Source: Heptranchias perlo (taxonomy: Eukaryota). Taken from it: a stretch of 64,000 nucleotides of DNA. The stretch spans positions 21,762,001 through 21,826,000 of the forward strand of contig NC_090355.1 in NCBI RefSeq assembly GCF_035084215.1, given 5' to 3'. Both the position numbers and the translations under genes were made by a program. The notes under the pieces were generated by a model. The model searched no databases, was not told where the DNA came from, and was given only the letters and a program-made list of their open reading frames with translations. Position 1 is the stretch's first letter. Each line of letters opens with the position of its first letter. Of the stretch, positions 38,001 to 59,739 are shown piece by piece.

Positions 38001-41000
38001 ATTTGCCATGTATCTGCAGTAAAAGAGTGTCTCAGCTAACTCAGTGGAAAAAATTTATGACTGAGTCAACATGTTATAGGGACATTTCCACACAACTTTG
38101 AAAGATGTTACATACCTCATTATCTTGGCACTAAATTCCACTTTTAAATCCGAAGAAACCTATTGCATATTTATTCCATTTAGGCACTGAAGTACATAAA
38201 CTAGTCACACATAACTGTCACAAAAGAATACCTTCATGTAAATAACTTATGGTTAATGTTCTTCCAATCAGTTTGTGTTCATTTTAAACTGTGGTGTTAA
38301 ATATTAATTCTAACTGATTTACTGAAGCATGCTCCAACAAGTCTGGTGCAGCAAATGATAATGAGGTATGTAACATCTTTCAAAGATGTGTGGAAATGGT
38401 CTCTAAAACCTCGCATTTGAATTTCTATACAAAAAAGGGAGTATGTTTGACTAAGGGAACTTCTAATACTGCACACTCAAGGAGAGAAGTAATGCAACAG
38501 TGATGATACAATTAAGACCTACTAAAAAGCATCCAGTTCACTTCTAACAAGTCGACATTTAAATGCCCCACGTTGCTTAACTAGAACGGTGACCTGCATT
38601 TATATATAGCGCCTTTAACAACCACAGGATATGCAGAAGCACTTTACAGCCAATAAAGTGCTTTTTTGAAGCATAGTCACTCCTATAACATAGGGAAATA
38701 TTGTAAACAATTTTACAACACATTTATGTAATTACATTTATGTAATTTCCACACCACCTGAGGAAGGAGGAAGCCTCCGAAAGCTTGTGGGATTAAAAAT
38801 AAAATTGTTGGACTATAACTTGGTGTTGTAAAATTGTTTACAATTGTCAACCCCAGTCCATCACCGGCATCTCCACATCATAGGGAAATATGGCAGCCAA
38901 TTTGTGCACAGCAAGGTGTCACAAACAGCAATGAGATATGGATTATCTGGTTACGTAAGACCATCAGAGGTAGGAGCAGGCCATTTGGCCTCGAGCCTGC
39001 TCCACCATTTAATGAGATCATGGCTGATCTGATTTTTACGTCAACTCCACTTTCCCATCTTTTCCCCATATCCTTTGGCCTCCTTGTTGATCAAAAATTT
39101 GTCCAACTCACCCTTGAATGTATTCAATGACCCTGCCTCCACAGCTTTTTGGGGTAAAGAATTCCAAAGATTCATGATCCTCTAGGAGAAGAAATTCCTC
39201 CTTACCATCTTCAATGGGCGACCCCTTATTCGGAGACTATGCCCCCTTGTTTTAGATTCCTCCATGAGGGGTAACATCCTCTCAGCATCTTATGTTTCAA
39301 TGAGATATCTCATTCTTCTAAACTCCAATGAGTGTAGACCCAACCTGTTCAATCTTTCCTCATAAGACAACCCTTTCATTTAAAAAAAAATGTTGGTTGA
39401 TGGATAAAGATTATCCAGGTCATTGGGAGACTGCCCCTGTTCTTTTGACTAGTGTCATGGAATCTTTTACAGCCACCTGAGAGGGCAAACTAGGTTTAAC
39501 ATCTCATCTGAAAGTCTCTGGAGTGGGGCTTGAACCCATGACCTTCTGCCTCAGAGAGAGTGCGACCACTGAGCCAACGCTGGATGGTTGTAATCTTCCA
39601 GAAGTCACTCGATTCTAGAAAGGTCCCAGCGGATTGGAAAACCACAAACGTAACACCCCTATTCAAGAAGGGAGTGAGACAGAAAGCAGGTAACTATAGA
39701 CAAGTTAGCCTAACATCTGTCATTGGGAAAATGCTATAATCCATTATTAAGGAAGTAGTAGCAGGACATTTGGAGACTCATAACACCATCAAGGAGAGTC
39801 AACATGGTTTTATGAAGGGGAAATCGTGTGACATTTATTAGAGTTCTTTGAGGAAGTAACGGACAGGGTGGATCAAGGGGAGCCAATGGATGCAGTATAT
39901 TTGGATTTCGAAAAAGCATTCGATAAGGTGCCACATGAAAGATTACTGCACAAGAGAAGAGCTTATGGTGTTGGGGGTAATATACTAGCATAGAGGATCA
40001 GCTAACTAACAGAAAACAAAGAGTCAGGATAAAAGGGTCATTTTCAAAATGGCAATCTGTAACTAGTGGAGTGCCACAGGGATCAGTGCTGGGGCCTCAA
40101 CTATTTATAATATATATCAATGACTTGGATGAAGGAACGGAGTGTCCTGTGGCCAAACTTGCTGATGATACAAAGATAGGTGGAAAAGCAAGTTGCGATG
40201 AGGACAAAAGTGTCTGCAAAGGGATATTGACAGGTTAAGCGAATGGGCAAAAATTTGGCAGATGGAATATAATGTGGGAAAGTGTGAAGTCATCCACTTA
40301 GGGAGGAAAAATAAAAAAGCAAAATATTATTTGAATGGCAAAATACTACAAAATGCTGCAGTACAGAGAGATCTGGGTGTCCTCTTACATGAAAGAGGAA
40401 GTCAACATACAGGTGCAGCAGATAATCCAGAAGGCAAACAGAATCTTGGCCTTTATTTCTAAGGGGATGGAGTATAAAAGCAGGGAAGTTATGCTACAAC
40501 TATACAGGGTGCTGGTGAGACCACACCTGGAGTACTGCATACAGTTCTGGTGCCCTTATTTAAAAGGAAGGACATACTCACGTTGGAGGCAGTTCAGAGA
40601 AGGTTCACTAGGTTGATTCCGGGTATGGAAGGGTTGTCTTATGAGGAAAGATTGAACAGGTTGGGTCTACACTCACTGGAGTTTAGAAGAATGAGAGGAG
40701 ATCTTATTGAAACATACTAGATTCTGAGGGGACTCGATAGGATAGATGCTGAGAGGATGTTATCCCTCATGGGGGAATCTAAAACTAGGGGGCATAGTCT
40801 CAGAATAAGGGGTCTCCCGTTTAAGATGGAAATTAACAGGAATTTCCTCTCCCAGAGGGTCGTGAATCTTTGGAATTCTTTACCCCAAAAAGCTGTGGAG
40901 ACTGAGTCATTGAATACATTCAAGGCTGAGTTAGACAAATTTTTGATCAGCAAGGGAGTCAAAGGATATGGGGAAAGGGCGAGAAAGCGGAGTTGAGGTA

Positions 41001-42457
41001 AAAGTCAGATCAGCCATGATCTCATTAAAATGACGGAGCAGGCCCGAGGGGCCGAATGGCCTACTCCTATCTCTTATGGTCTTATATAGTAGAGAAAAGA
41101 AAGATCTTCACAACATAGACCATTTCTCTCGTGTTATCAGCTCTTCACTCATGGAATAAAATGGGCATCCACTCTACCAACTGTATATTCTCTGATATGA
41201 TTGCAGTTTGTCACCACCAACCATTTTTTGCTGGCATTGTACAGCAGTCAACAGTTTTCCACTAGAATATTCAAGACCTCAGAATAAAACAGTATTTCAT
41301 AGGTTATTTTTAAAAATGTGTCATTTGTAACTGCCAATAACTTAAATTTATTGGTTGCACTTCTCAGGTATCAGTGGCAAGTAATAATGCTTGATTAAGG
41401 CATCCATTACTTATTGAATTTCGGCCTTCTACCACTTGAGCATATTTTTTCCTTTTCTGTAAAAGGCAATCTGTATTTACATATTCTTGCATTAGATTGT
41501 ATCAAGCTCTGCATATCTCGGCATCAGCCAGTGAATGCAACACTAATCGCTATCAGTAGCTACACTTCTGATTTACAACCTCTTCAAAAAGCAGCCGCAG
41601 TTTTATGCTTGTGTGCTTCAACAATTCATTTTGCAGCTCACATGCCAACCCCACATCATTAAGCCTCATGCTACAAACCACCTTCCAGAAGAATATCACC
41701 ATTTCCAGTAAGAGATGACACATACATTCCACTGGAATCACAACACTTGTATTCTTTCTTGCATAAGATCATTTAATATTTTTTCTTTTAAAAACGAGCC
41801 AGAATTCACCTCAATTTTCCAAAATCAGCAGTTTTCTTTCCAAGAGCAATTCAGCACATGGATTTCTTGTAGAAATTATTTGATAAAGGAAGAACAAATC
41901 ACCAGCTGGCGTAAGTGTTGTATTAGAAGGAAATGCAGATAGGGTTAGATGAAGTAGGATGGGAGACGGCTCGTGTGGAGCATAAACACTGGCACAAGCC
42001 ATATGGGCCGAATAGCCCGTTTCTGTTCTGTAAATTCAATGTAATTAAAAAGGGCAACAATTGAAATGAAAATAACTTTTTGAAGCAGTTTTTGTTAAAG
42101 CTAAAAAAAAATTCAGCATGCACACATTTAGGGTAACGTCAATACTGTAATATGAACACTTTCATTATATACTATTGCCCCACAAAAATATTAAGAGGAA
42201 GGGAAATATTTTTATTCAAAATAATCTGCTTTTCATAAAAAGATACAAGTCACTGAATGCTGCAAAGGAAAAGACACTGCAATTTTCCAGAAAATCAAAG
42301 TGAGTCCAACTGATTTACTGCACTGACCTTAAGCCATTGAACAGCTGTTTGGATTTATCAAGTAGGTAGCAAAAATCAGTAACTGTCTTCCTCTCCCCCA
42401 ATGGAATATCATCATCGGTTCCTCCCCCTGCTGTCATGGCTCCTTCCAGATTCAATA
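6512..42457 (-). CDS. SCAI: SCAI (suppressor of cancer cell invasion), partial multi-exon gene; 10 coding exons visible, continues beyond the left edge
   Basis: Spliced translation [69 protein letters not shown]...[27 protein letters not shown] is recognisably vertebrate SCAI. All introns are GT-AG and exon phases are compatible (1024 coding nt). Confidence 0.97.
6827..7026 (-). mobile_element. Penelope-like fold-back terminal fragment (family B) with degenerate hammerhead motif
   Basis: TSD cttgctttca(a/t)taaa at 6812-6826 and 7027-7041; inverted arms; minus strand reads CTGACAA-A-AGGTT-ATC-GACCT-GAAA. Confidence 0.75.
7074..7399. mobile_element. hAT/Charlie-like MITE
   Basis: Perfect 8-bp TSD GTTTAGAC (7066-7073, 7400-7407); right TIR AGTTTGGACACTCCTG; left TIR degenerate. 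Confidence 0.55.
8430..8531 (-). CDS. SCAI: SCAI exon ([34 protein letters not shown])
   Basis: 102 nt; ccctag acceptor, gtttgc donor. Confidence 0.96.
9040..9430 (-). mobile_element. Old tRNA-headed SINE-like repeat
   Basis: Minus strand has A-box-like GGTTCAG and B-box-like GGTTTGATCCC; body matches the 2985 family. Confidence 0.55.
9454..10355 (+). mobile_element. Jockey-group (CR1-like family 2) LINE, 5'-truncated
   Basis: ORF 9468..10307 [31 protein letters not shown]; conserved 3' tail. Confidence 0.9.
11295..11396 (-). CDS. SCAI: SCAI exon ([34 protein letters not shown])
   Basis: 102 nt; ttttag acceptor, gtgagt donor. Confidence 0.96.
11700..11990 (+). mobile_element. Old tRNA-headed SINE-like repeat
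   Basis: Same motifs as the 2985 family. Confidence 0.5.
12178..12416. mobile_element. PIF/Harbinger-like MITE
   Basis: 13-bp perfect inverted repeat GTACATTTACACT / AGTGTAAATGTAC; GGG start; TGA/TTA flanks. Confidence 0.55.
13118..13270 (-). CDS. SCAI: SCAI exon ([51 protein letters not shown])
   Basis: 153 nt; ttatag acceptor, gtatgt donor. Confidence 0.95.
13720..14115 (+). mobile_element. Old tRNA-headed SINE-like repeat
   Basis: TGGCTCAGCTGG A-box; body matches the 2985 family. Confidence 0.55.
15418..15458. repeat. (CA)n microsatellite
   Basis: About 20 CA units. Confidence 0.98.
16897..16995 (-). CDS. SCAI: SCAI exon ([33 protein letters not shown])
   Basis: 99 nt; accag acceptor, gtctgt donor; phase 0/0. 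Confidence 0.95.
17190..17540 (+). mobile_element. Old tRNA-headed SINE-like repeat
   Basis: gccacttgggcaagatatcagagggctgct motif shared with the 2985 family. Confidence 0.5.
18410..18970 (-). mobile_element. L2 LINE fragment
   Basis: [21 protein letters not shown] and [11 protein letters not shown] peptides. Confidence 0.8.
19118..19214 (-). CDS. SCAI: SCAI exon ([32 protein letters not shown])
   Basis: 97 nt; ttgtag acceptor, gtatgg donor; peptide visible in ORF 19079..19288. Confidence 0.96.
19578..19676 (-). CDS. SCAI: SCAI exon ([33 protein letters not shown])
   Basis: 99 nt; tttag acceptor, gtatga donor; peptide visible in ORF 19391..19675. Confidence 0.96.
20838..20924 (-). CDS. SCAI: SCAI exon ([28 protein letters not shown])
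   Basis: 87 nt; cctag acceptor, gtaagt donor; peptide visible in ORF 20837..21055. Confidence 0.96.
22020..22565 (+). mobile_element. Jockey-group family-2 LINE 3' fragment
   Basis: Highly similar to 9820-10355. Confidence 0.9.
22983..23078 (-). CDS. SCAI: SCAI exon ([32 protein letters not shown])
   Basis: 96 nt; ctaacag acceptor, gtttgg donor; phase 2/2. Confidence 0.96.
23800..27640 (+). mobile_element. Highly degraded long CR1 (ORF1 esterase-like remnants to RT end), interrupted by a Harbinger relic
   Basis: GVHL-like, [28 protein letters not shown] and [11 protein letters not shown] remnants in colinear order. Confidence 0.6.
24985..26110 (+). mobile_element. PIF/Harbinger transposon relic (DDE transposase C-terminal fragment, frameshifted)
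   Basis: [31 protein letters not shown] and [29 protein letters not shown] resemble the HARBI1-type motif series. Confidence 0.75.
27934..28035 (+). mobile_element. Degraded Penelope-like family-B terminus with hammerhead core
   Basis: AGTT-CTGATGA-actatatct-GAAA-TATT-AACT followed by tail remnant. Confidence 0.55.
28320..29135 (-). mobile_element. Jockey-group family-2 LINE fragment
   Basis: ORF 28597..28923 [18 protein letters not shown].. Confidence 0.9.
29630..29880 (+). mobile_element. Old tRNA-headed SINE-like repeat (3' part)
   Basis: tgaagaatggccacttgcacaaggtattggagggctgcc motif. Confidence 0.5.
32009..32040. repeat. (AT)16 microsatellite
   Basis: Read directly from the sequence. 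Confidence 0.98.
33800..34160 (+). mobile_element. Degraded CR1 3' end
   Basis: acaagaggtagttactatgtgg..ctgcca..gggccacatggcctgtttct. Confidence 0.55.
35030..36500 (-). mobile_element. L2 LINE fragment
   Basis: [37 protein letters not shown] peptides; L2 3' tail at 35040. Confidence 0.8.
37360..37900 (-). mobile_element. L2 LINE 3' fragment
   Basis: acaacaacttgcatttatatag tail; homologous to 51525-52215. Confidence 0.8.
38590..39580 (-). mobile_element. Deu-domain SINE interrupted by a PLE fold-back and a CR1 3' end (38955-39375)
   Basis: Colinear with the copy at 43990-44395; tRNA head with gggttcaagccc B-box on the minus strand. Confidence 0.8.
38702..38878 (+). mobile_element. Penelope-like family-A terminal insertion with hammerhead motif and short inverted 5' arm
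   Basis: TSD CATAGGGAAATAT at 38689-38701 and 38879-38891; CTGAGGA-A-GGAGG-AAG-CCTCC-GAAA-GCTT at 38758-38786. Confidence 0.85.
39581..41083 (+). mobile_element. CR1 LINE, 5'-truncated RT plus 3' UTR
   Basis: PQGSVLGP / ADD motifs, [29 protein letters not shown]; frameshifted. Confidence 0.92.
42328..42457 (-). CDS. SCAI: SCAI exon containing likely start ATG at 42437 ([37 protein letters not shown])
   Basis: Acceptor ttttcag; ATG in GCCATG context; donor AAG|gtcagt; ends in phase 2. Confidence 0.93.
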
Positions 42458-42974
42458 CTGAAAACTAATAATAAACTTTACATTAGTACATTGAACTACA
42501 AGTATTGTCTTACACATTATGGATATGTACATTATATAAACCTGTACCTCACCTAATTCCACGAAGGATTAAAAAAAAAAGCAGCACAACTATTCCATCC
42601 ATGTGACTGAAATAAAAATGAAGTTACTGGTCACTTGTAACCAGTGATACAGCCAACTTGGGAGACATTGCCCCATCAGTGACACACAAATGAAGTCTTG
42701 AACAGTTATTGCACAGTAGAGAGAGCCACAGCTTCAAGCTTGTTACACAATTAGTATGTTTATGACACTAATTTTGCCTGAACAGTCACTGTACTTCAAA
42801 AGTAATTCATTGTGTAGCACTTTTGAGAATCTCAACATGATAGTATTTGTATTTATTTAGCACTATTATTTAAGCACAAGCCATCCCTCAATTATGCAAC
42901 TCACTTGCAGCCATCTATTGTATTACAGTACATTGTGTCATGCAGTTATTAAGCCAACATTTACTGAATAAAAG

Positions 42975-43375
42975 GCTCTCCCTGATGGCTCAGCAAGTTT
43001 ATCTACTGACAAGTAAGCAAGAGAGACCAGCAGGGTCCTAGATTTGATTCTTGGTCTGTGCTGAGTTGGCTGATATTGCCTGGGGCAGTCAGTCATCGGG
43101 GTACTACAATTAGTGACAGTACCCATGGGCTAGGGAGATGAGAAAGAGAAAAAAAAAAGTTCCTGATCACTGTCCAGTGACCTGCTGGAACTGCCACTGA
43201 ACATTAAAGATGAAATCAGGTTCAACTGAGATGATATCCCTCACCATCAAATGAATGGTCTGCCAACACCCACTTTCAAGGCTAACAAGTGAATGATGGC
43301 CACTTAGGCAAAGTATTGTTGCTCATGGGACCGTTCTTCAGTAAAAGGATTCAACATCATCAGTAGAAAAAGGAG
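42975..43375 (+). mobile_element. Old tRNA-headed SINE-like repeat
   Basis: TGGCTCAGCA head; atggccacttaggcaaagta motif. Confidence 0.55.
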
Positions 43376-43989
43376 AAGCCACAAGCCACTATTAGGCAGA
43401 ACAGGAGTTAATTTTTTTTAAAAACAGCAGTTTTAAATTTTACGACGACTTTGCGTGGAATAAACAATTTCAGAACACATTGAGGCAACTAGAAGAATGA
43501 AATACTGTTCAAAATAATGCCAGTCAAATGTTACCATTGCAATCAACATAGCAACTCCAGTGCCCATGAGCAAGCCACCCATAAAACACCAATAAAAAAA
43601 CTCATTCCAGTATAATCACAACAGAAAGCACAAGATCCAGAGATGTCAAATGCATGATAGCAAAAAGGCTATCATTTCCATGTAATGACCATGTTTCAAG
43701 CCACTCCACTTTTTTTTAAATTTAAATATTCATAGTGCCAGGAGAACCATTTTAAATCAGAAAACAAGTTAAAAACTTGCTGGATAGGCCATTTATCCAA
43801 CAAGTAGGCACAACCAAACACACAATGCTCATCTTGGTATGAAGTGGTATCCAAGAGTTTACAAACATGATTACATTAATTTGTTAAACATTTATATTTT
43901 ATTTCCTGAAATCAGCTTTGTGTACACTGAATTAACCTTCACACTCCTGCAAAAAAAAGCTTGTAAAAAAGTGAAGCCACATTAAATAA

Positions 43990-44395
43990 AAAACATTTAT
44001 AGCACCTTTCACGACTATAGGACGTCCCGAAGCACTACAGTTATTGAAATATTTTTGAAGTGTAGACGCTATCGTAACGTAGGAAATGCAGCAGCCAATT
44101 TTGCACACAGCAAGGTCCCACAAACAGCAATGAGATACATAACCAGATAATCTGTGTTTTTAAAAAGATGTTGGATGAGAGATAAATGTTGGCCAGAGCA
44201 CTGGGAGATGCCATCCGATTTTTAGTGAGGGCAGATGGGGTCTCTATTTCACGTCTCATCTGAAAGACGGCACCTCCGACAGGGCAGCATTGAAATATCA
44301 ACCTGCATTATGTGCTCAAGTCTCTGGAGAGGGGCTTGAATCCATGACCTTCCGACTCAAGAGGCAAGAGTGCTACCACTGAGCCGAGGCTGACA
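43990..44395 (-). mobile_element. Deu-domain SINE, near full length
   Basis: Minus strand gtcagcctcggctcagtggtagcactcttgcctc..ggattcaagccc head; L2-like tail. Confidence 0.85.
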
Positions 44396-44969
44396 TCTTA
44401 GTTAAAGTTGCCTTTAATATAAACTAACTTGCACTATGACAACATTTTTTTTTTTAAAAGTCAAGAATTTGAAAGTTATTACAAGTGGAAGTTAATGGAG
44501 CATAGATGAACAGAAGCATATTAAAAGAACCTAGTCAAACAATATTTATGTTGATCGCATACACCCAAGACTGTGCTCTTTGAAGGAGGTAACAAAATGT
44601 ACAAAATACTTTATTTCCTGCAGCTGTGCAATGCTAGCTGGAATGTGAACTCCGGTTTCAGCATTTACTTGCTCAGTGACTGATGTAGTAGTGCAGAACT
44701 GTGTTCTCAGAATAAGCTGAAGCATAGCGTTACAGAGGATCTTGCTTTGCTAAGGACCTGCCTTGGTGAGGATCTCAATTCACACAATGTGATTCACTGA
44801 AACGCTGCTGACACAATAAGTTCTGAAAGCATTTTGAGTAAGTGAGAGCGGCAAGATGATCAGTTTTTTCTATGGGTGTGCCAATCCTGCAAGAGCTTCA
44901 TAAAATTTATACTACCTCCATTTTGCTGCAGCCCACATACAATTAACTGGAGGCATGCTTGAAGTATAA

Positions 44970-45875
44970 AATAGAAATCTTGGCAAAATTTACAACACAG
45001 AAGCCATCCATTCAGCCCATTGTGTCTGTGCCAGCTGAAAAAAAGCCATCCAGCCGAATCCCACTTTCCTGCTCTTGGTCCGTAGCAGCACTTCAAGTGC
45101 CTATCCAAGTACTTTTTAAGTATGATGAGGATTTCTGCCTCCGCCACCCTTTCAGGCAGTGAGTTCCAGACCCCCAGCACCCTCTTGATGGAAACATTTC
45201 TCAACTCCCCTCTAATCCTTCTGCCAATTACTTTAATCTGTCCCCAGTTATTAACCTCTCTGCTAAGAGAAATAGGTCCGTCCTATCCACTTTATCTAGG
45301 CCCCTCAATTTTATAAACCTCAATTAAATCTCCCCACACACTCTTCTGTTCTGAAGAAAACAACCCCAACCTATCCATTCTTTCCTCACAGCTGAATTTC
45401 ACCAGTCCTGGCATCACCCTCTTAAATCTCCCCTGTACCATCTCTAGTACAATCACATCTTTCCTGTAATGTAATGACCAGAACTGTACATAGTATCTCT
45501 AGCTGTGGCCTAACTAGTGTTTTATACAGTTCTAGCATAACCTCCCTGCTCTTATAATCTATGCCTCAGCCAATAAAGGAAAGTATCTCACATGCCTTCT
45601 TAACCACCTCATCTACCTGTCCTGCTACCTTCAGGGATTTGTGGCCGTGCACTCCAAGGTCCCTCTCTTCCGCTACACCTTAGTATCCATCATTTATTGT
45701 TCATTCCCTTGCCTTGTTTGCTCTCCCCAAATGCATCACCTTGCACTTCCCCAGATTGAATTCCATTGCCACTTTTCTGCCCAGTCCATTGATCAATTTC
45801 TGCAGTCCACAGCTTTTTTCCTCACTATCAACCACACAGCCAACTTTTGTATCATCTGCAAACTTCTTAATCATA
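44970..45875 (-). mobile_element. CR1 LINE 3' fragment
   Basis: RVLGVWNSLPERVAEA peptide; colinear with 1563-2470. Confidence 0.85.
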
Positions 45876-46004
45876 AATGTTAAGCCTTCTCCTCTCCATA
45901 AGTGGAATGATTAACTGCAGCAAGGGTTAATCACCCAGCAGACCAAACACTACTCAAACCTATCCAAATAAGTCAGGCAGTCAGGAGAATTAATGCTGCT
46001 TTCG

Positions 46005-46370
46005 ACTTGTTCTTGGGATGTGGGTGACGAGCAAGATTACAGTCATTGCCCATCCTTGTTGCAGAGCAGCAATTAAAAAAAAACTGAGCAGCTTGCTAGA
46101 CCACTTCAGAGGGCATTAAAAGTCAACCACAGTGTGGGACTGGAATCATGGATAGGCCAGACTGGTATGGATGACAAGTTCCCGTCAAGGAAGGAGAGTA
46201 CTACACCAGTTGGTAGTTCATTGCAACTGGCAGCTTTCATGGCTATTTTCTTCTGGTGCCAACCCATAAATTGCCACATTTATTGAATTCAATTTCACAA
46301 CACATCATCATGTTTGGAATTGAACACAGCCTCTAGGTTGGTAGTCCATAACAATAATGCTACTATACCC
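46005..46370 (-). mobile_element. tRNA-derived SINE sharing its 3' tail with the family-2 LINE
   Basis: Homologous to 48125-48555. Confidence 0.65.
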
Positions 46371-46449
46371 TGATAAAACTGAAATCACTCAGTGCACAGA
46401 CAGAAAACCCGCATTACTTGACACTGCATTTATAGAAATTTGCTAGTCA

Positions 46450-47277
46450 AATTTCGAAGTTTGCAGACGATACAAAATAGCAAGGATAGTGGCAGACTCC
46501 AGGAGGTGAGACATGACAAGCAATTTAATGCAGGCAAGTGTGAAGTGATGCACTTTGGGAAGAACATGGAGAGGCAGTATAATCTAAAATGGTACTATTT
46601 TGAGGGGGTGCATATTCACAAATCTGGGCAGGGCAAGTTGATATGGCGATTATGAAAGTGTATGGGATACTTGGCTTTGTAAATGAGAGCACTGAATGCA
46701 AAAACAAGGAAATCATGCTAAACCTTTACAAATTACTGGTTAGGCCTCAGCTGAGTATTGTGTACAATTCTGGGCACCACACTTTAGGAAGGATGTCAAG
46801 GCCTTGGAGAGGGTACAGAGGAGGTTTACCAGGGATGACGGACTTCAGTTATGTGGAGAGACTGGAAAAGCTGGGATTGTTCTCCTCAGACCTGAGGTGG
46901 TTCGATCCAACAAAGGTTTTCAAAATTATCTGAGGTTTTGAAATCGCAAGTAGGGAGAAACTGTTTCATCTGACAAGTGGGTCAGTAACCAGAGGTCATA
47001 GATTTAAAATAACTGGCAAAAGAACAAGAGATGAAATAGGAGAATTTTTTTCACGCTTACAGTTAGGATCTGGAATGCACAACCTGAGAGTGTGGTGGAA
47101 TCAGATTCCATAACAACTTTCAAAAGACAAAAGACAATTGGACATGTACTTGAAGAGGACTAATTTGCAGGGTTATGGAGAAAAAGCCAGAGTGCGGAAC
47201 TATATTGGACAGCTCTTTCAAAAAGCAAGCAGGCACGACAGGCCAAATGGCCTCCTCCTGTGCTGTTAAGATTCTAA
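46450..47277 (+). mobile_element. CR1 LINE 3' fragment
   Basis: [21 protein letters not shown] and [12 protein letters not shown] peptides. Confidence 0.85.
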
Positions 47278-48124
47278 AGACGTGGTTTTCAGAAGGAAGT
47301 AGAAAAATCAATATCCTTCTATCTAACACCATCACATTCTGCAATGATTACCAGGCCTAACATCTCCAGATATACAGGATAAGTTTCTGTATCCCTCAAT
47401 GCTGGAATTTGAAAAAAAGGTTAATTTGATTATTTAAATGGCTAAAATGTAAAAGGATAAAGGGCAGCTTTCCCCTCACTAACAGTACTTCTCAGTAATA
47501 GCAAAGCCTGTAATCCTAATGTAAGCAATTGCTAATCTTGAAATCTGTTGTATTGCCAAATTGGTAAACCTGCTTGATGATTACATAAGCTAATTAACAA
47601 ACCTCCTACACCAATTTTGAGTCTTTGTTCATTTACTTTGTTCTGACACAAATGGAGATGATTCAAAAAGTTATTCAACACACCTCCTTTAAAAATAAGG
47701 TTTCAAGTTAAAGATAGAGTATAAAGAAGAAAAAGATTTGAAGCTTTGCTTAAGATTAGAGTACTATTTGTCCTCCTGCAGGTGAGGAATGGAACATTTT
47801 CATTTTAGGCACCCAGTGTCAGAATCAAGCACTCAGGTCAAGTGCAGCATGGTCAGGTGTATAGTAATGGTCCCTCTACTCTACCTAAATCCCCAACTGC
47901 ATCAATATGACCTGTGGCTTCTCAGAATGAGATTGCCAATTCAATGCCAGTTAGTGGCAAAGCAGAAGCAATTTTGTTCTCAAGAACTCGATTAAGTCTG
48001 TTTACTTCAGGCAAGGCCTTTACTACTAACAGACAGAGGAAACTTATCAGTCTGGACAGAATTCAAACACCAAAGTAAAAGGCCATTTTTAACCCACAAT
48101 CACCAAGTCTAATTTTTTTTTAAA

Positions 48125-48555
48125 AAATTCATTCTCAGGACATGCCAATTACTAGTTGCCAAGATGGTGGTGGGCTACCTTTTTGAACCGCTGCAGACAG
48201 TGTGGTGTAGCAGTTTGATATAACTTAGTGGCTTGCTATGCCACTTCAGGAGGGCAGTTAAGAGTCAGTCACGTTGGAGAGAGACTGGAGGGTCAAACGA
48301 GTCAAACTGGATAAGAACAGCTGGTTTCCTTCCCCAAAGGGCATTAGTGAACCAGTTGTAGTTTTAGGACAATCCCATAGCTTCATGGTCACATTTACTG
48401 ATAAATAAATCTGGGAATAAATTGTTATTTTTTTTCAAAAACTGAATTCAAATTCTCAAACTGCCGTAGTCAGATATGAACACTCATTCTTGCAAGGTCA
48501 TTAGTACAAGCCTCTGGGTTACTCATCCAATAAGATAACCACTACACTACCGTAC
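48125..48555 (-). mobile_element. tRNA-derived SINE with family-2 LINE tail
   Basis: Minus strand GGTAGTGTAGTGGTTA head; ends ctgcagcggttcaaaaaggtagcccaccacc. Confidence 0.7.
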
Positions 48556-48724
48556 CTGATTTAATAGAGTGACTCCTGCAAAGGTTTCCGTGATTAGAGA
48601 GTTTCAAACTCGTTTTTTTTTCTGGCTACTAGAGTCCCTTGTATTAGGACGTACACTGAAGCAACTAACTTAAACAGCACACTAAAACCAACATGATACT
48701 GGGGCACAGAGGGTTAAATTACTA

Positions 48725-49145: not shown

Positions 49146-51524
49146 TGGAAAGCTGAACAGTAAATATATAAACTTCACGAACTGAGCACGATTTGGCCTT
49201 TGGTTGGAGGATATACTGCCCAAAGAGATCTCCGGAGAACCACAAGATTGTTTCTTGTCCAGTTCCTTAAATTTCTTTCTGCTGCAGTACAGTAACTTAG
49301 TGAATGAATGTGATGGAAAAGATCAATACTCCAAATCTGGTATTCTGCCAAAAACATCTGATGTTTGCGCAGTCTATGGTTAATCAAATGCATGTTGATC
49401 CATTTTGTTATTAAAAAATTTCAATTCATAATGTGTAGCTACACAACTGTATGAACTTAAATCTTGATTTAGGAGACCCAAAAAAAAGCTCACCACTAAC
49501 CAGTCCCCACCTTCCCAATTACATACCACTGTCTCTAATGAGGTAAATAGTAAAAACTTACATGACAATGTACATTTGTCCAAGTAGTACCACCTAATGT
49601 ATAGACAGGGATTAGTAAAAATGTGCATAGATTTGATAACAGGAAATAGTAAACCAGGAGTAGCAAAATGCTTCAGTTGAATTGATTCATTGATCATAAA
49701 CATCAATGTCAATAAACATTCTTGCAGACACTGTTCACAGGTGAAGCGACAATGTCCTTTTCCTGCACAAAGACAGGATTAGTATACTATATTGCAGAGA
49801 GACAGGATTAGTAAACTATATGGTGAATCTGAAAGTATATTCTTGTGCCATATTTATAATTTTCAGTAAATCACTGGTTATCCTGCATCCATTAGCAGAA
49901 CAAAATTCACAACCCCTATTTATTGTATACGAACTCCTACAACTCCAAAAAGCAGTATTCATTTTTTTGCCTTTTTCCTCCCCCCTCCCTTCACTCACCT
50001 TCCCACAACATACATCTCCTGCAACCAAGATTGGCAAATAAGGGCCATCAGCAGCAAAAAAGACAAACCCCAGATGATTACTTTTTTCCTCCCTCCTTAT
50101 CTGGAAATGTCTCTGCTCATCACCTCGCCATGGCCACGTGGCCGAGATCTGAAACTCCGAGTGGGAGATATCAATCCTGCACCCAACTACCCAGCGTAAT
50201 GCGCCAGTATGGCAACATGCTGCCAAATTGTGCCAATATTGTAATTGTTTCTTTAAATAATTTTAAGATATGCTGACAGCATTGAGAAATAAGCATACAA
50301 CTTGTGCACAATATAAAAAATACCATGGCTGCATTACTTCAGAAAATATAACTACAACAGATCCTAAACACTAAATAGCTCCTGCACTTCACTAAGCAAT
50401 ATATACAATTACAAATTAGATATAATTATAGACCAAAAAAAAAATCATGGTACAGAAAAGGCTGCTCAAGAACTTCAGTATACAAAAAGGTCAATATGGA
50501 ATTTATAATAAATCATTGTTCTCTTTGCAATAGATGTCAGTAGTGCATGATTGCAGTGAGAAGGTCACAACGTTCCGGCCACTGTATAACAAACTGAAAA
50601 TGATTTCAAAATCACATCACCTGGATTTTTTTTTAAATGTTTCAGATTCTATGAAAACAGTACTAAAGTAAGTACTCTGAACATAGAGAAGTAGTTGTAA
50701 AAAAAAGCTTCAAAATCTTTTCAGATTTTAAAAGATGCATATTTTCTTTTGGTGCAGAATCAGGAGTTTAAAAATAAGCCTTCCTAGTTATTGGTCTAGG
50801 ATCAGCATCCACTAAAAAAAAGCCATGAGATTGTCTTTACAACAGAACAAATTTTGAAAATAATTACACTAACAATTTAAGTTTTCATAATTGTGGATTA
50901 CAAATGTTATTCCTCCTTTTTTGAACAGGAGATAAAAATCTAATCAATACACCATTAGGCTTCCCCATAAAAAAAAACTACTTGATAATACAGAAACTTG
51001 ACAATTAAGTGAAAAATGAACAGAAAACTACAAAATACCATTTATACCACACATGGTCTCAGATGTTGGTTTTCACCTTTGATCATTTTAACTGTACCAA
51101 AAAGCTTCCCATATTATTTCAAGATTTAGTTATTTTCTCAATTTACATGTCTTCTTCATCCATGTGGCCCTGCATTCCATTCTCTTCAATTGCATGTAGC
51201 TCTCCCATCTCAACTAATGATGGAAATTATACCTCGATTTCTCCATGTATAAAATGTGCAATGCATATGCTGTACAATCATTCTGTTCCCTTCAGTTGCA
51301 TTAGAGAAAAGCCATGACTGATAACTCCATGTGTGCTTGCTTGACTGCACATTAATGATTGATACATCATATCACCAACACTGGAAATGCACAGTAAAGG
51401 CCACTGAATCCCTCATCAAACCTCCATAACCACCCTGCCTCCACCACCCCCTCCCCCCGCCCCAACCACTATTCTAATGCTCTCCTGGCCAGCCTCCCAT
51501 CCTCCACCCTCTAATCTAAATCAC

Positions 51525-52215
51525 AACAACTTACATTTACTCAGCACCCTCAACATAGTAAAACATCCCAATGCACTTCACAGAAGCGTGAACAAAATTT
51601 GACACCAAGCCACATAAGGAGAAATTAGGTCAGGTGACCCAAAGCTTGGTCAAAGAGCTAAGTTTTAAGGAGGGTCTTAAAAAGGATGAGGGGGTAGAGG
51701 GGTGAAGAGTTTTAGAGAGGGTATTCCAGAGCTGAGGGCCTAGGCAGCTGAACACACAGCCACCAATGGTAAAACAATTGAAATCAAGGATGCACAGAAG
51801 GCCTGAATTGGAAGAGCACAGAGATCAGAGGGTTATAGGGCTGAAGAAGGTTAGAGATAGGGAGGGGCAAGACCATGGAGGGATTTGAAAACAAGGATAA
51901 GAATTTTAAAATCCAGGTGTTGCCTTATCGGGAGCCAATGTAGGTCAGCGAGCACAGGGTTAGGGGTGAACGGGACTTGGCGCGAGTTAGGATACAGGCA
52001 GCAGAATGTTGGATGAGTTCAAGTTTATGAGGGTGCAAGGTGGGAGGCCGGCCAGGAGAGCATTGGAATAATCAAGTCTAGAGGTAACAAAATCATGGAT
52101 GAGGGTTTCAGCAGCAGATGAGCTAAGGTAGGGGCAGAGATGGGCGATGTTACAGAAGTGGAAATAGGCGGTTTTGGTGATGGTGAAAATATGGGGTCAG
52201 AAGCTCATCTCAGAG
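51525..52215 (-). mobile_element. L2 LINE 3' fragment nested among plus-strand L2 remnants (51420-51515, 52215-52370)
   Basis: Homologous to 37360-37900 and 4350-4787. Confidence 0.8.
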
Positions 52216-52559
52216 CCTCCTGTAAGATCCCCATTAAAACCTACCTCTGACCAAATTTATGGCCACCCCTAACAATCATCGGCTCTGCATCCACATATTA
52301 TGCATGACACCTCTGAAGCACCTTGGGATGTCTTTCTATGTTGAAGGTGCTGAATAAATACAAGTTCTTGTTAAAAGGGAGAGGGGGAAGTGCTTCACCA
52401 CATGTTTTATCAAGGTAAGAAAGATTACTTCATTGTTGAAGTACATTTTCCTCTTTCCATACTGACAGCAAGCACTCCAATGCCATGTTACATTCAATAC
52501 ACTGTACCACAGATTTTACAACACAGAAACAGGCCATTCGGCCCAACAGGTCTGCGCTT

Positions 52560-52775
52560 CAAATAGTACCACGGAATCTTATGTCCACCCGAGACAGCAG
52601 ACAGGATCAGAGTTTAACGTCTTATCCAAAAGACAGTAGCTCTGACAGCGTAGAACTCCCTCAGTACTGCACTGAAATGTCAGCCTTGATTATGTGCGTA
52701 AGTCTCTGGAGTGGGGTTTGAACCCATGGCTTTCTGACTGGAGAGTAACCCACCATTGAGCCAAGGTTGACACCT
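52560..52775 (-). mobile_element. Deu-domain SINE 5' part
   Basis: Homologous to 44220-44395. Confidence 0.7.
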
Positions 52776-53377
52776 AAAACGCAAAAATGGTTTTTAATTC
52801 CAATCATATTTTGTAACAATGGAGTGGAACAGCATCATCTCAGTTTCTACTCAATTTATTCAAGTAGTTAATCGCCAGACAGGAGGGTTCCCTCCCAGTC
52901 GGAGAACACTTCAGCAGTCAAGGACATTCAGCCTCCAATCTTCGGGTAAGCGTTCTCCAAGGCGGCCTGTGGAACACACGACAATGCAAAATCGTCGAGC
53001 AGAAATTGATAGCCAAGTTCCGCACCCACGAGGACGGCCTCAACCGGGATCTTGGGTTCATGTCACGCTACATGTAACCCCACCTGACGTAGAGTCATCC
53101 AGACTAAGTCGTAGTTGGCTTGTTCTCCATACACAGATGCAGCCGGACCTGCTGCGATTTCCAGCGAAAAAAAGTTATCTGTTTTCAATACAAACCCCAG
53201 CATCTGCTACATTTGACCCCTTGTGACCCCACCTCAGTATTCTTGGATGTAATGTTTCCCTGACTAACCTGTTTGAACACCATTCACTCCTTTGATTGCT
53301 GTGATTATCTCTCTGCCGAGGTGTGATAAAGGGCAGTTAGAAAGATTATCTGTAATCACCAGGCATTGTTCTCTGAC

Positions 53378-53412
53378 TATATATGCTGTGCCGATATGCA
53401 TCTCTTCACTTC
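53378..53412 (+). promoter_or_regulatory. Candidate TATA plus Initiator of the PLE pseudo-LTR
   Basis: TATATAT at 53378; TCACTTC (YYANWYY) with its A at 53408, 30 nt downstream. Confidence 0.4.
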
Positions 53413-53447
53413 ACCTGACGAAGGAGCAAAGCTCCAAAAGCTTGGGA
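53411..53447 (+). ncRNA. Minimal hammerhead ribozyme motif in the PLE pseudo-LTR (G12 mutated)
   Basis: TCAC-CTGACGA-A-GGAGC-AAA-GCTCC-aAAA-GCTT-GGGA. Confidence 0.6.
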
Positions 53448-54176
53448 TTTCAAATAAAGCTGTTGGACTCTTACCGGGTGTTGTGCGTCTCCTTACATTT
53501 AATCAGAGAGAGAATGCTCAATTAGTCATTTTATAATAAACTTGGAATTTGTTTGAAATTGACTGTTTTAAGATAATGGCCATTTAAAAAATAATGTACT
53601 TTGAAAGTATAATTAATGCCCAATGATTAAGGGAAGAAAATACCCATTTGATTCCCCGTCCCTCAAGTCAAATTATATTGGCCACGGGAATCAAGCGCCG
53701 CCTGGGACAACTGTCAGCTGATTGAGGAATTGGTGCCCTTCTCTCACATTCAAAATGGTAGTCAGGACAGCAGGAACATCACATTCTTTCACAGAAACTT
53801 CATTTTGTTCACCACTTGTAAAATCACACTGTTAGCTGCTCTGCCAATCATTCCAAGTTAAGGCCTGCACAGTGCATTGTTTCAGCTTGGTTAAATTTGC
53901 AGCACTCACACCTCTTCAAAAAGGTTGTGGGTTCAAGTCAGACTAGGATTTCAGCACATAATCTGGCCTGTGCAGTGGTGAGGCAGTGTTGCATTGTCAG
54001 AGGTATCCTATAAATGAAGTGTTAAACCAAGGCTCCAATGGATAAAAGAGCTATAGCACTATTTGGAGAAGAAAGGAGTTCTCCTACTGTTTTTGGCCTT
54101 GACTAATACCACTAAACACAAATTATCTGGTCATTCATTCAGTCATGTGGGACTTCACTGCTGCATTTGTCTAGAT

Positions 54177-54386
54177 GTGGAGATGCCGGTGATGGACTGG
54201 GGTTGACAATTGTAAACAATTTTACAACACCAAGTTATAGTCCAGCAATTTTATTTTAAATTCACAAGCTTTCGGAGGCTTCCTCCTTCGTCAGGTAAAT
54301 GTTTACCTGACGAAGGAGGAAGCCTCCGAAAGCTTGTGAATTTAAAATAAAATTGCTGGACTATAACTTGGTGTTGTAAAATTGTT
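54177..54386 (-). mobile_element. Penelope-like family-A fold-back insertion: perfect 86-bp palindrome with a hammerhead motif on each strand
   Basis: Arms 54214-54299 and 54302-54387; TSD TGCATTTGTCTAGAT at 54162-54176 and 54387-54401. Confidence 0.9.
54301..54341 (+). ncRNA. Minimal type-I hammerhead ribozyme motif (mirror copy on the minus strand at 54260-54300)
   Basis: GTTTAC-CTGACGA-A-GGAGG-AAG-CCTCC-GAAA-GCTT-GTGAAT. Confidence 0.7.
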
Positions 54387-55699
54387 TGCATTTGTCTAGA
54401 TAAGTGGCTGCCCTGCAAAAGTAGCACTTGAAAAAGTAAACCATTGTTTGTAAAATGCTCTGGGATATCCTGTGGATGTGATGAGTGCTATATCTTGTAT
54501 CTTTTTTGCTGCAAATTAATTTTAAAAATTCAGTTAGAAACTAAAATGCTCAAAAGGCTTAAAAAGGTCAAGGATGCTTAGGGTATGTAAACTATTAGTA
54601 ATGCTAAAGATTCTGTCTTCTGCATAGTTGAATGAAGTCTGGTTTCTAGAAAAGATTAGCTCTGCATGTTTTAAACAGATGTTTTTCATTGTGTTTGACA
54701 AATACAATGCAATCTGCAATGTTGTGGGTTATTTACAGTCACACTGTAACCCTGAATTGCAAGACCATATTTTTTTTTAATATTGTGACAAGTAAAGGGG
54801 AACTTGCAGCTTCACCAGTCTGTTTTCACTACCTTCTTTGGGTCAAAATAGATGACAGGCGAGATATATTGCACGATTCGCAGTAAATCTCAATGGAGGG
54901 ATGCAGGTGTGGGTAACTGATTAAAATTTCACCACCAAGCCAGAAACCACACAACAGCACAAATGCTGGTTCACAGTATTTCACCCGAGTACTATGGGGC
55001 TTTCCAGAACTGCCATTTTACTCTTGGGAGTAGTTCTTTCATAGAATTTCTAATATATACAGATACAATCACAATTAGTCATATTCTTTATATACCTCTG
55101 CTCATCTATTCCTCAATTCTTCCAATCACTCTCATTCTAGAAATGTCTAGTGATGTTGTCAATAGCAGTTTACAACCCTAAACCTAATCCCAACAACCAA
55201 CTTCTAAACCTAACCAACAACCTAACCACAAATCCTAGCCACTAACCCTAAAGCATGAATAAAGAGAGCGATGCAGAACCAGCTATGTGTCAATAGTCAT
55301 TGTGACATTGATGATACAGGTCGGCCACACTGTCAAGAGTCACTTATTCTTTCATCTTCCATTGTTTGGTTCCCCTATACCCTCTTGCATCATTGTCTCC
55401 AATTCTTTCAAATTCTCTTAAGAAATAGGCAGAGATTCCTTTTAAATAAACCTAAATGACTACTGTGATCCAATTACAATGACTATGTCAATAGTTGCAA
55501 ATGTTGCTGTTAAAATTTTTTTAGCTACTATGCACACATGGTTACTTTCTGACTTTATTCCTGATATTTTCCATACTAGTAACATGAGGGATTTTGCTGC
55601 AAATTGAACTATCAGGGAACTCATTTTTCTTTTCTTTTGCTTTTCTCTAGGAAAGAAATGACTGAAACACGAGTTTAAAATCCATAAAAACACTGTCTG

Positions 55700-55915
55700 T
55701 TTGCCTCCACCTCCCTCCTGTCTGAGCAGAAAACAATTGTCTGCTCTGCCTCCACCTCCCTCCTCCTTAAAACCTACCTCTTGGACCAAGCTTTGAGTCA
55801 CCAGTCTTAATAGCCCCTCTTTGGCTCGGTGTAAATTTTTGTCTGATTGCACTTCTGTGAAGCACCATGGGAAGTTTTCCTATGTTAAAGGCACTATATA
55901 AAAAGTAGTTGCTGA
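55700..55915 (+). mobile_element. L2 3' end
   Basis: Homologous to 4600-4787. Confidence 0.75.
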
Positions 55916-55928
55916 CGATTACACTTTA

Positions 55929-57239
55929 TTTAGAATGCAGTTCTCTTGGATCCGAGAATAGTTTTGATTGACCACTCTTAGTTGTAGAATGGTGCAAGGG
56001 ATAGGGAATGGAAGTGAAAAAAATTTAATTAGCAGGAGAAAACACTAAAGGATGAGAATGCGTTGTACCAGTGAAGGATTAAATGGCAGTTTTTTTTAAA
56101 ATCACCGATGTATGGTTTTTGTAAGGACTTTTGCTGGAAAATGTGCGCACAATGATTACCAAAATCAAGCTAAAATTTCTTGTCCACAATTTTTTGTTTA
56201 CTGTTTAAATGTTGCACATTTTTTTTTAAAAAACACTAAATCTATGAAATGCATGCATGCAGTGGTTCAAGAAGGCGGCTCACCACCATCTTCTCAAGGG
56301 CAATTAGGGATGGGCAATAAATGCCGGCCTCGCCAGCGATGCCCACATCCCATGAATGAATAAAAAAAATTATGGTTCTGTTTAAAAGGAATTTTATTTA
56401 GATTATTTCACAGGACCACAGGAAACCAGTCCTGAAATGTCACTTGAACATGTCCCAATCAGCTCACTCAAATCAAAAATTTTTCAAAATATTGATAAAG
56501 CAACTTTCTTCAGTTGTTAAAATTATACTTTTTAGATGGTGTTGGGAAAAAGAACGGCTGCTATATTAAAAAAAAATTACTATTTCCATTCAAAACTCAA
56601 ATGTGAAGCTAAAAAGTGTAAACAAAATATGGATAAATTTTAAAGACACAGGAACCAAATAAAAGCACACTAATTATTGGGCATAATTGTTCATCCAATA
56701 CAGTTAAAAGAATTAAGGGTATAGCAGTGTTTTTACATTTGAACTGGCCTTTCAAAGAATAAAATGTGTCTTCTGAAATTCCTTTTAAACAGAACCATAA
56801 TTTTTTTTATTCATTCATGGGATGTGGGCGTCGCTGGCGAGGCCGGCATTTATTGCCCATCCCTAATTGCCCTTGAGAAGATGGTGGTGAGCCGCCTTCT
56901 TGAACCACTGCATGCATGCATTTCATAGATTTAGTGTTTTTTTTTAAAATGTGCAACATTTAAACAGTAAACAAAAAATTGTGGACAAGAAATTTTAGCT
57001 TGATTTTGGTAATCATTGTGCACAAATTTTCCAGCAAAAGTCCTTACAAAAACCAGACATCGGTGATTTTAAAAAAAACTGCCATTTAATCCTTCACTGG
57101 TACAACGCATTCTCATCCTTTAGTGTTTTCTCCTGCTAATTAAATTTTTTTCACTTCCATTCCCTATCCCTTGCACGATTCTACAACTAAGAGTGGTCAA
57201 TCAAAACTATTCTCGGATCCAAGAGAACTGCATTCTAAA
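55929..57239. repeat. Long inverted duplication: arms 55929-56394 and 56776-57239, 381-bp spacer
   Basis: Arms are reverse complements with about 5 substitutions plus one homopolymer length difference; each contains a family-2 LINE 3' tail. Confidence 0.95.
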
Positions 57240-57264
57240 ACAAATCATTGAAAAAATGCCAGCA

Positions 57265-57700
57265 TCATGGAATCATACAGCACAGAAGGAGGCCAGTCAG
57301 CCCATCATGCCTATGCCAGCTTTTCAAGCAGCTATCCAATTCATACCCCTGCAATTATTTTTGCCGTTTCAATTATATGTCCACCCTTTCAGGCAGTGCA
57401 TTCCAGATCACAACAACTCACTGTAAAAAAAAAACTCTCACCTCCCCTCTGATTTTTTGCCAATTACCATAAATCGGTGTCCTCTGGTTACTGACCCTCC
57501 TGCCAGTAGAAACAGTCTCTCCAAATCTACTCCATCAAAACCCTTCATGATTCTGAACACCTCTTAAATCTCTCCTTAACTTTCTCTGCTCTAAGGAAAA
57601 CAATCACAGCTTCTCTCGTCACTCCACACAACTGAAATCCCTCATCACTGGTACCATTCTAGTAAATCTCTCAAAGGCCTTGACATCCTTCCTCCAATTC
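57265..57700 (-). mobile_element. CR1 3' fragment
   Basis: Homologous to 1563-2070. Confidence 0.8.
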
Positions 57701-59407
57701 AGGTGAGCAATGTTATGGGAAAAGTCTATGAGTATTTTTTTGACTTGCAATGTGGGGATTGCTATAAACTAATTAGTGTAGTATTATGAACATTGTTTGA
57801 GCCATGGTAGCTAATGATGGTGCAAAAGCATTACAGTAGTCAGTGTCCAACTTAAGTGCTGCCAAAGAAGCAAACTGAATTTTGCAGACAGAATTTCTGA
57901 ATTGGGATCAGTTATTATTTTCTGTCCCTCCAATGAAACTTCCTGCCTGTGGATTATCTACACTTTCTTCACTTTTGCACAAAGCAGCTTTCACCCAAAA
58001 CACTGGACACTTAGCGTACTAATAATTTAGTTATAAATCCATGCTTGCCTCCCCCTCTTTTTTTTTGTTCTTTAGTCCTCCAATCCATAAATGCTCATCT
58101 CAAAAATACAACACTGCACTATTATAATTCACTGTTTAATTTTTTTTTTGAATGATTAAAGATTCTACTTTGGCCCTAAAAGAGATGTTGTCATAACTGC
58201 AGCATCAATTCATCTTGAAAATTATTTTTCTTTTCTTCCCACTTCATCTTGCCTCCACAATCAACATGTGCCAGAAAGCTCCTCTCCATCCCAAATTAAA
58301 ATATTGAAATAGACAAGAGAATTGGGGAAGGGACAGTAATGAGAGGTGTGGGGAAATACAACCTATGTCAGCAGTACCAGATGGCACAGTGGGTTAGATC
58401 CTGGCCTAGTATTAAAGCCAGCAAACAAAACTAAGAGTTGAAGTTAATTTCGCCAATTTCAATCCATTTCCAAAACTGCCTCGAACCGCACTAAATTGAC
58501 ATTCTCATTTAAAGATCTTTTTTGGAAGTCCCCAACACAAAGTTTGAATAACATTGATCTAAACTGGACTGAATTTTATCACAACATAGCTGAGCTAAGT
58601 ACTTGCTATACTAAGCAGCAATTAGTCAGACTGATAAATGGGCTCTTAAATTATCAAGCTATCCTGCTGCTGGTGGTGAAGGAACCTGTTGAATTTTCTT
58701 GCTTCGGAGCTATGATTATCCGCAGTTTACAGTTCAATGAAATAGATTGCCAAATTTTAAACTTAGCACAAATGTTGAGAATTGTGGCTTGCTTTTGATA
58801 TGACATTACCTCAATTAACATTCCTACACACCTAAAATTTAACGTAATTAACATTCACAAACAGTACTATAGAAAAACTGCTTTGACATACTTAACACAA
58901 ACCAGTGCAATTTCACACTAAAGATTTATACCTCTTCTTACAAATAGTAAAGTTCCTCTTGTATTTTTTTTTGAGTGAGGAGAAATGATTATACATCCTA
59001 AACTATTGTAGCAAAGCGCTCAATGCAGTACAGCAAAAAGACTGCTTGGTGATGTCTGAATACATGTTAGCAAGAGATTTACTTAAACTCCAGTTCCTAA
59101 AAATGTATCTACCCACAGTCTTTGTTCAGTTCAAAATTCCCTTATTTAATCTTCAGCATTGCAACCATCTGAGCCCTTAAATTACCAATTAATCTGCTGA
59201 TCCAAGATTGCTCAGTAGATTCTGATCAAAACCTCAAATTTCCCCAGTGAACCATCTCATTAATAAATGCTGCAAAATGACATGCTCAGTGCTCACTTGT
59301 CTGGATAATTACATCTAGTTTTTCCTTGGTAGCCAGCAGCTTCTAACCATAGAAAGTAGATGCATCAGAGATTGAGAATTCTTTTATCTATCATTTATAC
59401 ATACACA

Positions 59408-59610
59408 TGTAAGGAATCTTACAACACCAGGTTATAGTCCAACAAATTTATTTTAAAATCACAAGCTTTCGGAGATTATCCGCTTCATCAGGTGAAGGGG
59501 ATAATCTCCGAAAGCTTGTGATTTTAAAATAAATTTGTTGGACTATAACCTGATGTTGTAAGATTCCTTACATTTGTCCACCCCAGTCCATCACCGGCAT
59601 CTCCACATCA
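59408..59610 (+). mobile_element. Penelope-like family-A (second subfamily) fold-back insertion with hammerhead motif
   Basis: Arms 59407-59487 and 59493-59573 (2 mismatches); TSD TTATACATACACA at 59395-59407 and 59611-59623. Confidence 0.9.
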
Positions 59611-59739
59611 TTATACATACACAGCAGTTCCTCTGCGGGGCTTGTGCTACATGGTTTTTGCAACTCTTTATATACAAGGAACATACACAAATAATATTGT
59701 TAAGACCACACGATCTCATGGAGTACAAGATTTGTGATC

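Follow-up and report, generated by a model that had tools for sequence, protein, structure and literature searches.

The window analysed here is a 64-kb stretch of Heptranchias perlo DNA in which three insertions of a Penelope-like element (PLE) lie at 38.7, 54.2 and 59.4 kb, each with a duplicated target (Table 1). The three have in common the 3' tail, inverted arms and a hammerhead-type core. As the first-pass annotation of this DNA had reported, all carry target-site duplications (TSDs) and two lie antisense within copies of a SINE. This repeat is ~400 nt long with a putative tRNA-like head; a profile search of the window gave no SINE hit at site 3. Throughout, site A denotes the RNA start at the tail end, and site B the RNA start on the opposite strand that lies upstream of it by 34-41 nt. 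An empty-allele check in two of the four sequencing runs of one sample that contain this DNA gave no joint spanning insertions 2 or 3 among the matches listed.

The 12-nt TSD register obtained from genome-wide data places the cut (^) before RGCAG at all three window sites, which read ATAGGGAAATAT^GGCAG, CTAGACAAATGC^AGCAG and TTATACATACAC^AGCAG for insertions 1, 2 and 3, respectively. In this register, the 1-nt offset previously noted between the TSDs of the two SINE insertions vanishes; the 15-nt sites on which it was based include bases common to the element ends. The consensus proposed from those sites, AnnTAnnnAnAYRYR-GCAG, fits none of the 104 empty sites in the unbiased set.

Table 1. 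PLE insertions and SINE copies in the window (window positions; bits refer to the target motif described in the text).
Feature	Position	Strand	Remarks
SINE copy hosting insertion 1	38602..38953	-	profile hits 38602-38716/38881-38953
Insertion 1, upstream copy of 12-nt TSD	38690..38701	+	
Insertion 1, body	38702..38879	+	short inverted arm from RNA site B, then pLTR end and tail
Insertion 1, putative hammerhead core	38758-38782		motif match alone, without Rfam hit
Insertion 1, tail (36 nt)	38844-38879		last base is RNA site A
Insertion 1, downstream TSD copy	38880..38891	+	followed by half-site GGCAGCC; motif score 8.0 bits
Uninterrupted, near full-length SINE copy	43995..44397	-	profile seed; -3.1 bits at the SINE site proposed earlier
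Diverged SINE copy hosting insertion 2	53879..54493	+	profile hits 53879-54161/54365-54493; SINE coordinate of the insertion ambiguous
Insertion 2, tail-end TSD copy	54163..54174	-	12-nt register; final base common to tail; 7.4 bits
Insertion 2, body	54175..54387	-	inverted arms 2 x 95 nt, 98% complementary, with putative hammerhead cores
Insertion 2, tail	low-coordinate end of 54175..54387		
Insertion 2, inverted-end TSD copy	54388..54399	-	
Insertion 3, upstream TSD copy	59395..59406	+	12-nt register
Insertion 3, body	59407..59610	+	second sequence variant, with inverted arms of 85 nt, a tail and one additional A
Insertion 3, downstream TSD copy	59611..59622	+	followed by AGCAGTT; outside SINE; 5.6 bits

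Other repeat structures were seen in the window. A fourth, more diverged PLE piece (52900-53500) comprises the 3' end of the ORF and a pLTR ending at site B, with the tail absent. At 55929-57239 lies an inverted duplication with 466-nt arms, 98% identical, around a 381-nt spacer; it includes unique-looking DNA and a LINE 3' end, and is supported by short contigs from two runs. The segments 38956-39379 and 40625-41084 are one repeat present twice, inverted (83%), with a piece of SINE and part of a LINE between them.

Exact copies of the element's 29-nt tail number 43,266 in the 3.25-Gb genome, and those of its 18-nt form an estimated ~47,000. In a natural copy, a single ORF of 902 aa runs from an ATG behind the tail and matches RVT_1 (E=2.5e-10). 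By motif, its C-terminus is a GIY-YIG-type nuclease with CCHH (VVY...YIGET at 790, two cysteines between, histidines downstream), for which Pfam returned no hit; a CX4CxxC linker is found at 753. A PDB search gave nothing below E=0.65. The pLTR, the inverted arm and a tail of 30-40 nt are all present, and the pLTR contains a putative hammerhead, recognised by its core motif and a short stem, with no hammerhead match in Rfam at gathering score. A CX2-5CxxC linker before the nuclease is the Neptune/Nematis criterion in a recent review (PMC8557442), and lack of the linker, the Penelope/Poseidon mark, does not apply to this protein. By the criteria of that review, the CX4CxxC linker thus identifies the element, as far as its sequence can tell, as an EN+ PLE of the Neptune/Nematis type rather than a Poseidon. 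The microsatellite bias associated with that type was not observed, with a simple repeat following the tail in only 5 of 180 insertions.

We take the host repeat to be a putative Deu-SINE/SacSINE1-like element, the Deu-SINE label following the first-pass annotation. Text resembling A and B boxes was recognised by eye at 44318-44392, and ARAGORN found no tRNA. The earlier claim that insertions 1 and 2 occupy the homologous SINE position has mixed support from alignment. When site 2 was aligned pairwise to 12 uninterrupted SINE copies, it fell on the same base in six and 3 nt off in one; in two of the others it lay ~20 nt upstream, and in three it was unaligned. The profile alignment, with low posterior, places site 2 inside an insertion ~20 nt upstream. 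The two insertions are in any case independent events. Copying of a SINE+PLE composite as a single unit was considered for this pair and ruled out, since each TSD is an exact duplicate, the two SINE hosts are very different and the arms also differ.

It had also been suggested that the SINE acts as a safe harbour, a single coordinate of it being targeted by the endonuclease or through RNA-DNA pairing. Two of the three window insertions do lie in SINE copies, both cut before RGCAG, and a pair of hits at this single site within one window should, by a hand estimate, occur only ~0.006 times per genome; summed over all SINE positions, however, the same kind of estimate gives ~0.2 such windows per genome. 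Moreover, the homology of site 2 is ambiguous. Among 180 unbiased tails from a single contig (C1), five lie in the SINE, none of them at the proposed site, compared with 29 of 1,311 control positions taken from those loci (Fisher p=0.59) and 8 of 426 in the window. Genome-wide, the SINE 9-mer GCAGCCAAT occurs within 60 nt behind a tail in 55 matches, against 44-47 predicted by uniform insertion, an expectation built on 107,411 genome copies of the 9-mer, a count slightly inflated by tandem arrays such as the one of 37-nt period at C1:1266944-1267248. The distance from tail to 9-mer is 13-22 nt in 25 of the 55 (hand count), a clustering that speaks for the SINE site. Nevertheless, among the 54 matches retrieved (the 55th is site 1), the 35 that are SINE with a resolved TSD have cuts scattered over at least 17 positions. 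The proposed site takes 5/35 of these, fewer than the 8/35 at position +9/+10, which is 8-9 nt away, and two of the five are in SINE variants where both sites coincide.

A tighter pattern of the proposed site has 37,203 copies; a tail lies within 14 nt in seven of them and at the exact cut in three, the TSD being confirmed in two of those three. Antisense use of the site is thus ~11 times uniform (3 vs 0.27 expected), and genome-wide a similar SINE pattern has 0 matches in the sense orientation. No single repeat coordinate is dominant: the exact SINE pattern accounts for 3 of ~47,000 tails and the strongest site found, in a LINE-like repeat, for 274, so that the SINE site is filled ~100 times less often (3/37,203 vs 274/28,392). 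What remains at the SINE site is a mild local preference, and a mechanism aimed at one SINE coordinate is scarcely credible. The SINE safe harbour is not real; the sequence preference behind it is. As a separate observation, the insertions at the proposed site (loci L235-L237, L044 and window 38880-38898) lie in copies that read T^GGCAG, a form due to CpG decay, and not the commoner C^AGCAG or C^GGCAG.

That preference emerges from a target logo, a check that the first-pass annotation had proposed for all TSD-flanked copies; it brought out a sequence-specific motif. The logo was built from the 180 tails in the first 100 Mb of C1, an exact 18-nt tail being required. A usable TSD (10-18 nt, adjoining element sequence) was found for 106 of them, 105 unique; the other 74 had none within 1.5 kb, and TSDs longer than 18 nt, which occur at simple-repeat sites, were dropped. 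The maximal TSD length is 12 in 48/105 and 10 or 11 in 9/105. Counting bases common to the element, 12 nt is compatible with 92/105 TSDs, while 13/105 are incompatible. In 62 sites just one 12-nt register is possible, and these, placed without reference to any motif, gave the flank motif CnnTGYC^N12^GRCAnnG. On the right flank, G at +1 is present in 38 of the 62 sites, C at +3 in 32, A at +4 in 32 and G at +7 in 31; the left mirror has C at -1 in 33, G at -3 in 29, T at -4 in 37 and C at -7 in 25. These frequencies (40-61%) compare with a background of 21-29% (p from 1e-4 to 1e-11). At +1 and -1 the definition of the maximal TSD introduces some bias, from which +3, +4, +7 and their mirrors are free. 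Mirror symmetry reaches r=0.85 at spacing 12 and is at most 0.21 at spacings 8-11 and 13-16. The duplicated part is 72% A+T. The motif is weak, with a total information of ~5 bits, and the match quality of the half-sites varies widely and correlates little (r=0.17). It is present in both sequence variants of the element (39 and 18 sites).

Counts of the half-site across the genome, independent of TSD calling, agree with this picture. The tail followed after 6-22 nt by GRCANNG has 4,305 genome matches where ~1,400-1,800 are expected, with a gap of 12-13 nt in 43 of the first 100. Site B followed after 6-20 nt by GRCANNG has 2,765, with a gap of 11-12 nt in 57 of the first 100. Therefore, the PLE family inserts at a loose palindromic motif with a mostly 12-nt, A+T-rich TSD and no SINE preference. 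Two elements of the first-pass annotation are thus borne out: the endonuclease has a sequence preference, and the GCAG beside the TSD belongs to it, being the right half-site GRCAnnG shifted by one base.

The motif probably also accounts for the SINE hits of the window. Its scores at the two SINE sites, 8.0 and 7.4 bits, are in the top 0.1% of window positions, and the median at the same place over 14 uninserted SINE copies is -2.8 bits. This indicates that the enzyme reads sequence and not a SINE coordinate, and that these two copies were probably hit because mutation had made them good matches. The SINE hits of the window are thus likely to be copies mutated into a good motif, plus chance.

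The strongest site found, with a motif score of ~11.7 bits, lies in an abundant LINE-like coding repeat, presumably a CR1-type LINE, to judge by the protein it encodes; its reading frame had no Pfam hit. At this hot spot, 157 and 117 insertions occur in opposite orientations, with complementary 12-mers and the same 12-nt cut, and together they occupy 274 of 28,392 repeat copies (~1%), 570-760 times uniform. More LINE-like target sites recur in the sample (L005/L068/L148, L029/L105/L184 and L003/L061), some used both ways round. Other arrangements of insertions were also noted. In a tandem GA-rich repeat (loci L072-L075, C1:3945100-4016400), PLEs form a cluster, some seemingly amplified with the repeat, and one PLE lies inside another. 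At L146 (C1:35337945-35338042), two PLE tails stand face to face, 16 nt apart, and the TSD of one abuts the tail of the other.

Such hot spots raise the question of whether the logo is a by-product of a few abundant repeat sites, of PLE-carrying LINEs copied whole, or of DNA shape or A+T richness. Indeed, 12 of 92 sites fall in four recurrent clusters, hot-spot sequences recur in the genome-wide matches, and the duplicated part is A+T-rich, as given above. On the other hand, the motif is little changed in 57 de-duplicated sites, the hot-spot copies vary in orientation, length and junction, and the flank signal is G/C-specific and symmetric at spacing 12 alone. We regard a by-product of this kind as very improbable.

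The element ends add a second regularity. The 5' start of the insertion is an inverted arm in 91/105 cases and lacks one in 14/105. Mapped on the element's own sense copy, which was possible for 76 of 92 insertions, the inverted start never coincides with the tail end and in 71/76 lies upstream of it by 34-41 nt. Target ends pair with the RNA at both junctions over 1-4 nt: microhomology between the target end and the RNA continuation amounts to 1.47 vs 0.45 nt over the 85 junctions at site A, and to 1.60 vs 0.51 nt over the 72 at site B; 0 of 2,000 shuffles reach the observed value at either. At the hot spot, 93 of the first 100 matches in one orientation (primer end TTTA) have just one A at the junction, and in the other orientation (primer end TCTA) three spacer lengths cover 98 of the first 100 (hand counts); several junctions there carry an unpaired terminal base. 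This dependence of the junction on primer end and microhomology indicates that pairing picks the start point on the RNA.

The same pairing does not choose the DNA site that is cut, as the first-pass annotation had allowed. Pairing of the element RNA with the target flanks was ruled out: no copy of the half-site is found in 290 nt around the RNA ends, which also counts against a safe harbour reached by RNA-DNA pairing, and the element's own ORF start scores only -1.6 bits for the motif. RNA folding gave a weak hairpin around B (z=-1.96) and z=-0.2 for the whole A/B region. In a full-length copy, with a TSD of 11-12 nt and a perfect half-site, the long arm ends at site B and the short one at the tail end (site A), so that the roles are swapped. 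Two further details were seen at site A: the ORF ATG coincides exactly with this RT start (L231, 1561 onward), and some insertions include up to ~40 nt of the ORF start before the target joint.

The motif, its symmetry, the 12-nt length, the use of a site in two orientations, the paired ends and the microhomology are direct observations, and we consider it probable that insertion at the palindromic motif, with no preference for the SINE, proceeds via two copies of the GIY-YIG nuclease nicking 12 nt apart, both 3' ends acting as primers. Following TPRT logic, a nick 5' of GRCAnnG on each strand would leave 12-nt 3' overhangs. One overhang would prime reverse transcription at site A and the other at site B; both cDNAs would then run through the RNA upstream of B and so form the inverted arms, of which only the A-primed one would carry the tail, and the joining of the two arms could produce the variable centre. 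Copying the same RNA stretch into both arms would require two templates or strand displacement. In such a process the enzyme would be a dimer and the two primings would be concerted.

Alternatively, the same motif might be used sequentially: one domain nicks, reverse transcription follows, the same domain nicks the mirror half-site, and later priming, fold-back or template switching gives the inverted arm. A single domain used twice would also yield a palindromic logo, and the 14/105 insertions without an inverted start would fit. Published accounts lend it some support: second-strand cleavage, as a late second nick, is placed after TPRT for PLEs in the available text of PMC8557442, self-priming has been proposed for inverted arms (PMC3846280), and homing GIY-YIG enzymes nick one strand and then the other (PMC3161791). 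Still, the near-fixed 12-nt spacing, with equal motif strength and equal microhomology on both sides, favours a fixed two-site geometry. Fold-back gives no reason to expect the target end to pair with site B, and A and B are paired in 71/76 insertions. We therefore find the sequential scheme unlikely and retain double nicking with priming from both ends.

The origin of the inverted repeats and tail of PLEs is called open in the available texts of PMC8557442 and PMC11167929. A symmetric staggered double cut with priming from both ends would explain both the inverted pLTR and the tail, and a fixed 12-nt palindromic target with paired RNA starts makes the question directly testable on a known substrate. 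As a wider and more tentative proposal, to which we give slightly less than even credence, PLEs might in general integrate symmetrically, unlike LINEs, through a dimer, two half-sites, a 12-nt staggered break and two RNA sites 36 nt apart. If this were true, the inverted pLTR, the one-sided tail and the TSD would all follow from a single step throughout the class, and a defined substrate would be at hand for in vitro work. The palindromic preference also accounts for repeated hits at one and the same repeat coordinate, with no need of safe-harbour targeting; this matters where shared insertions serve as markers.

Among known systems, L1 twin priming is similar in outcome: there the other end of the cut target serves as primer for a further cDNA, and an inverted 5' arm arises within the TSD. 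The inverted arm inside the TSD is common to both, and so, on the proposed mechanism, would be second-end priming. In L1, however, the second site is scattered, the event concerns a minority of insertions and the arms do not overlap, whereas in the PLE family the second site is fixed, most insertions are affected and the arms copy the same RNA stretch. DDE transposases and integrases likewise show a weak symmetric consensus around a TSD of fixed length, and hot spots. Unlike them, the PLE family has a GIY-YIG nuclease with an RT, and its 3' overhangs would serve as primers.

The host repeat appears to resemble SacSINE1 and the Deu-SINEs (PMC5499810) in a putative tRNA-like head, a central body and a length of ~400 nt, in a genome of shark-like repeat content; here it is an incidental target only. 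With Neptune/Nematis as outlined in PMC8557442, the element has in common an ORF with RT and C-terminal GIY-YIG-type nuclease, CCHH, the CX4CxxC linker and a DKG motif, besides a putative hammerhead core in the pLTR, an inverted pLTR and, at one end or the other, a tail of 36 nt. It differs in its target: the linker is tied to a microsatellite bias there and accompanies a palindromic, non-repeat target here, so that the linker zinc finger is not in every case a sign of targeting to microsatellites. PLE TSDs are given as variable in that review and as 8-10 bp in PMC3846280, and a mostly 12-nt TSD contradicts the variable description, at least for the Heptranchias perlo family. No palindromic PLE target or fixed 12-nt TSD was found in the literature searched; older papers and Repbase/Dfam may hold TSD data.

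Finally, a studied enzyme for comparison is that of PAc, the Poseidon of Anolis carolinensis (PMC11167929). The anole enzyme prefers an ATT motif and A+T-rich DNA instead, so that the palindromic motif may be family-specific, and neither a fixed TSD nor paired priming is described in the available text of that paper. In other respects the anole PLE fits the mechanism proposed here: in vitro, it cleaves and extends both strands, its RT starts at two sites that bound the tail, and a dimer is predicted; it also has a hammerhead, for which the Heptranchias perlo element has a candidate (PMC11167929).
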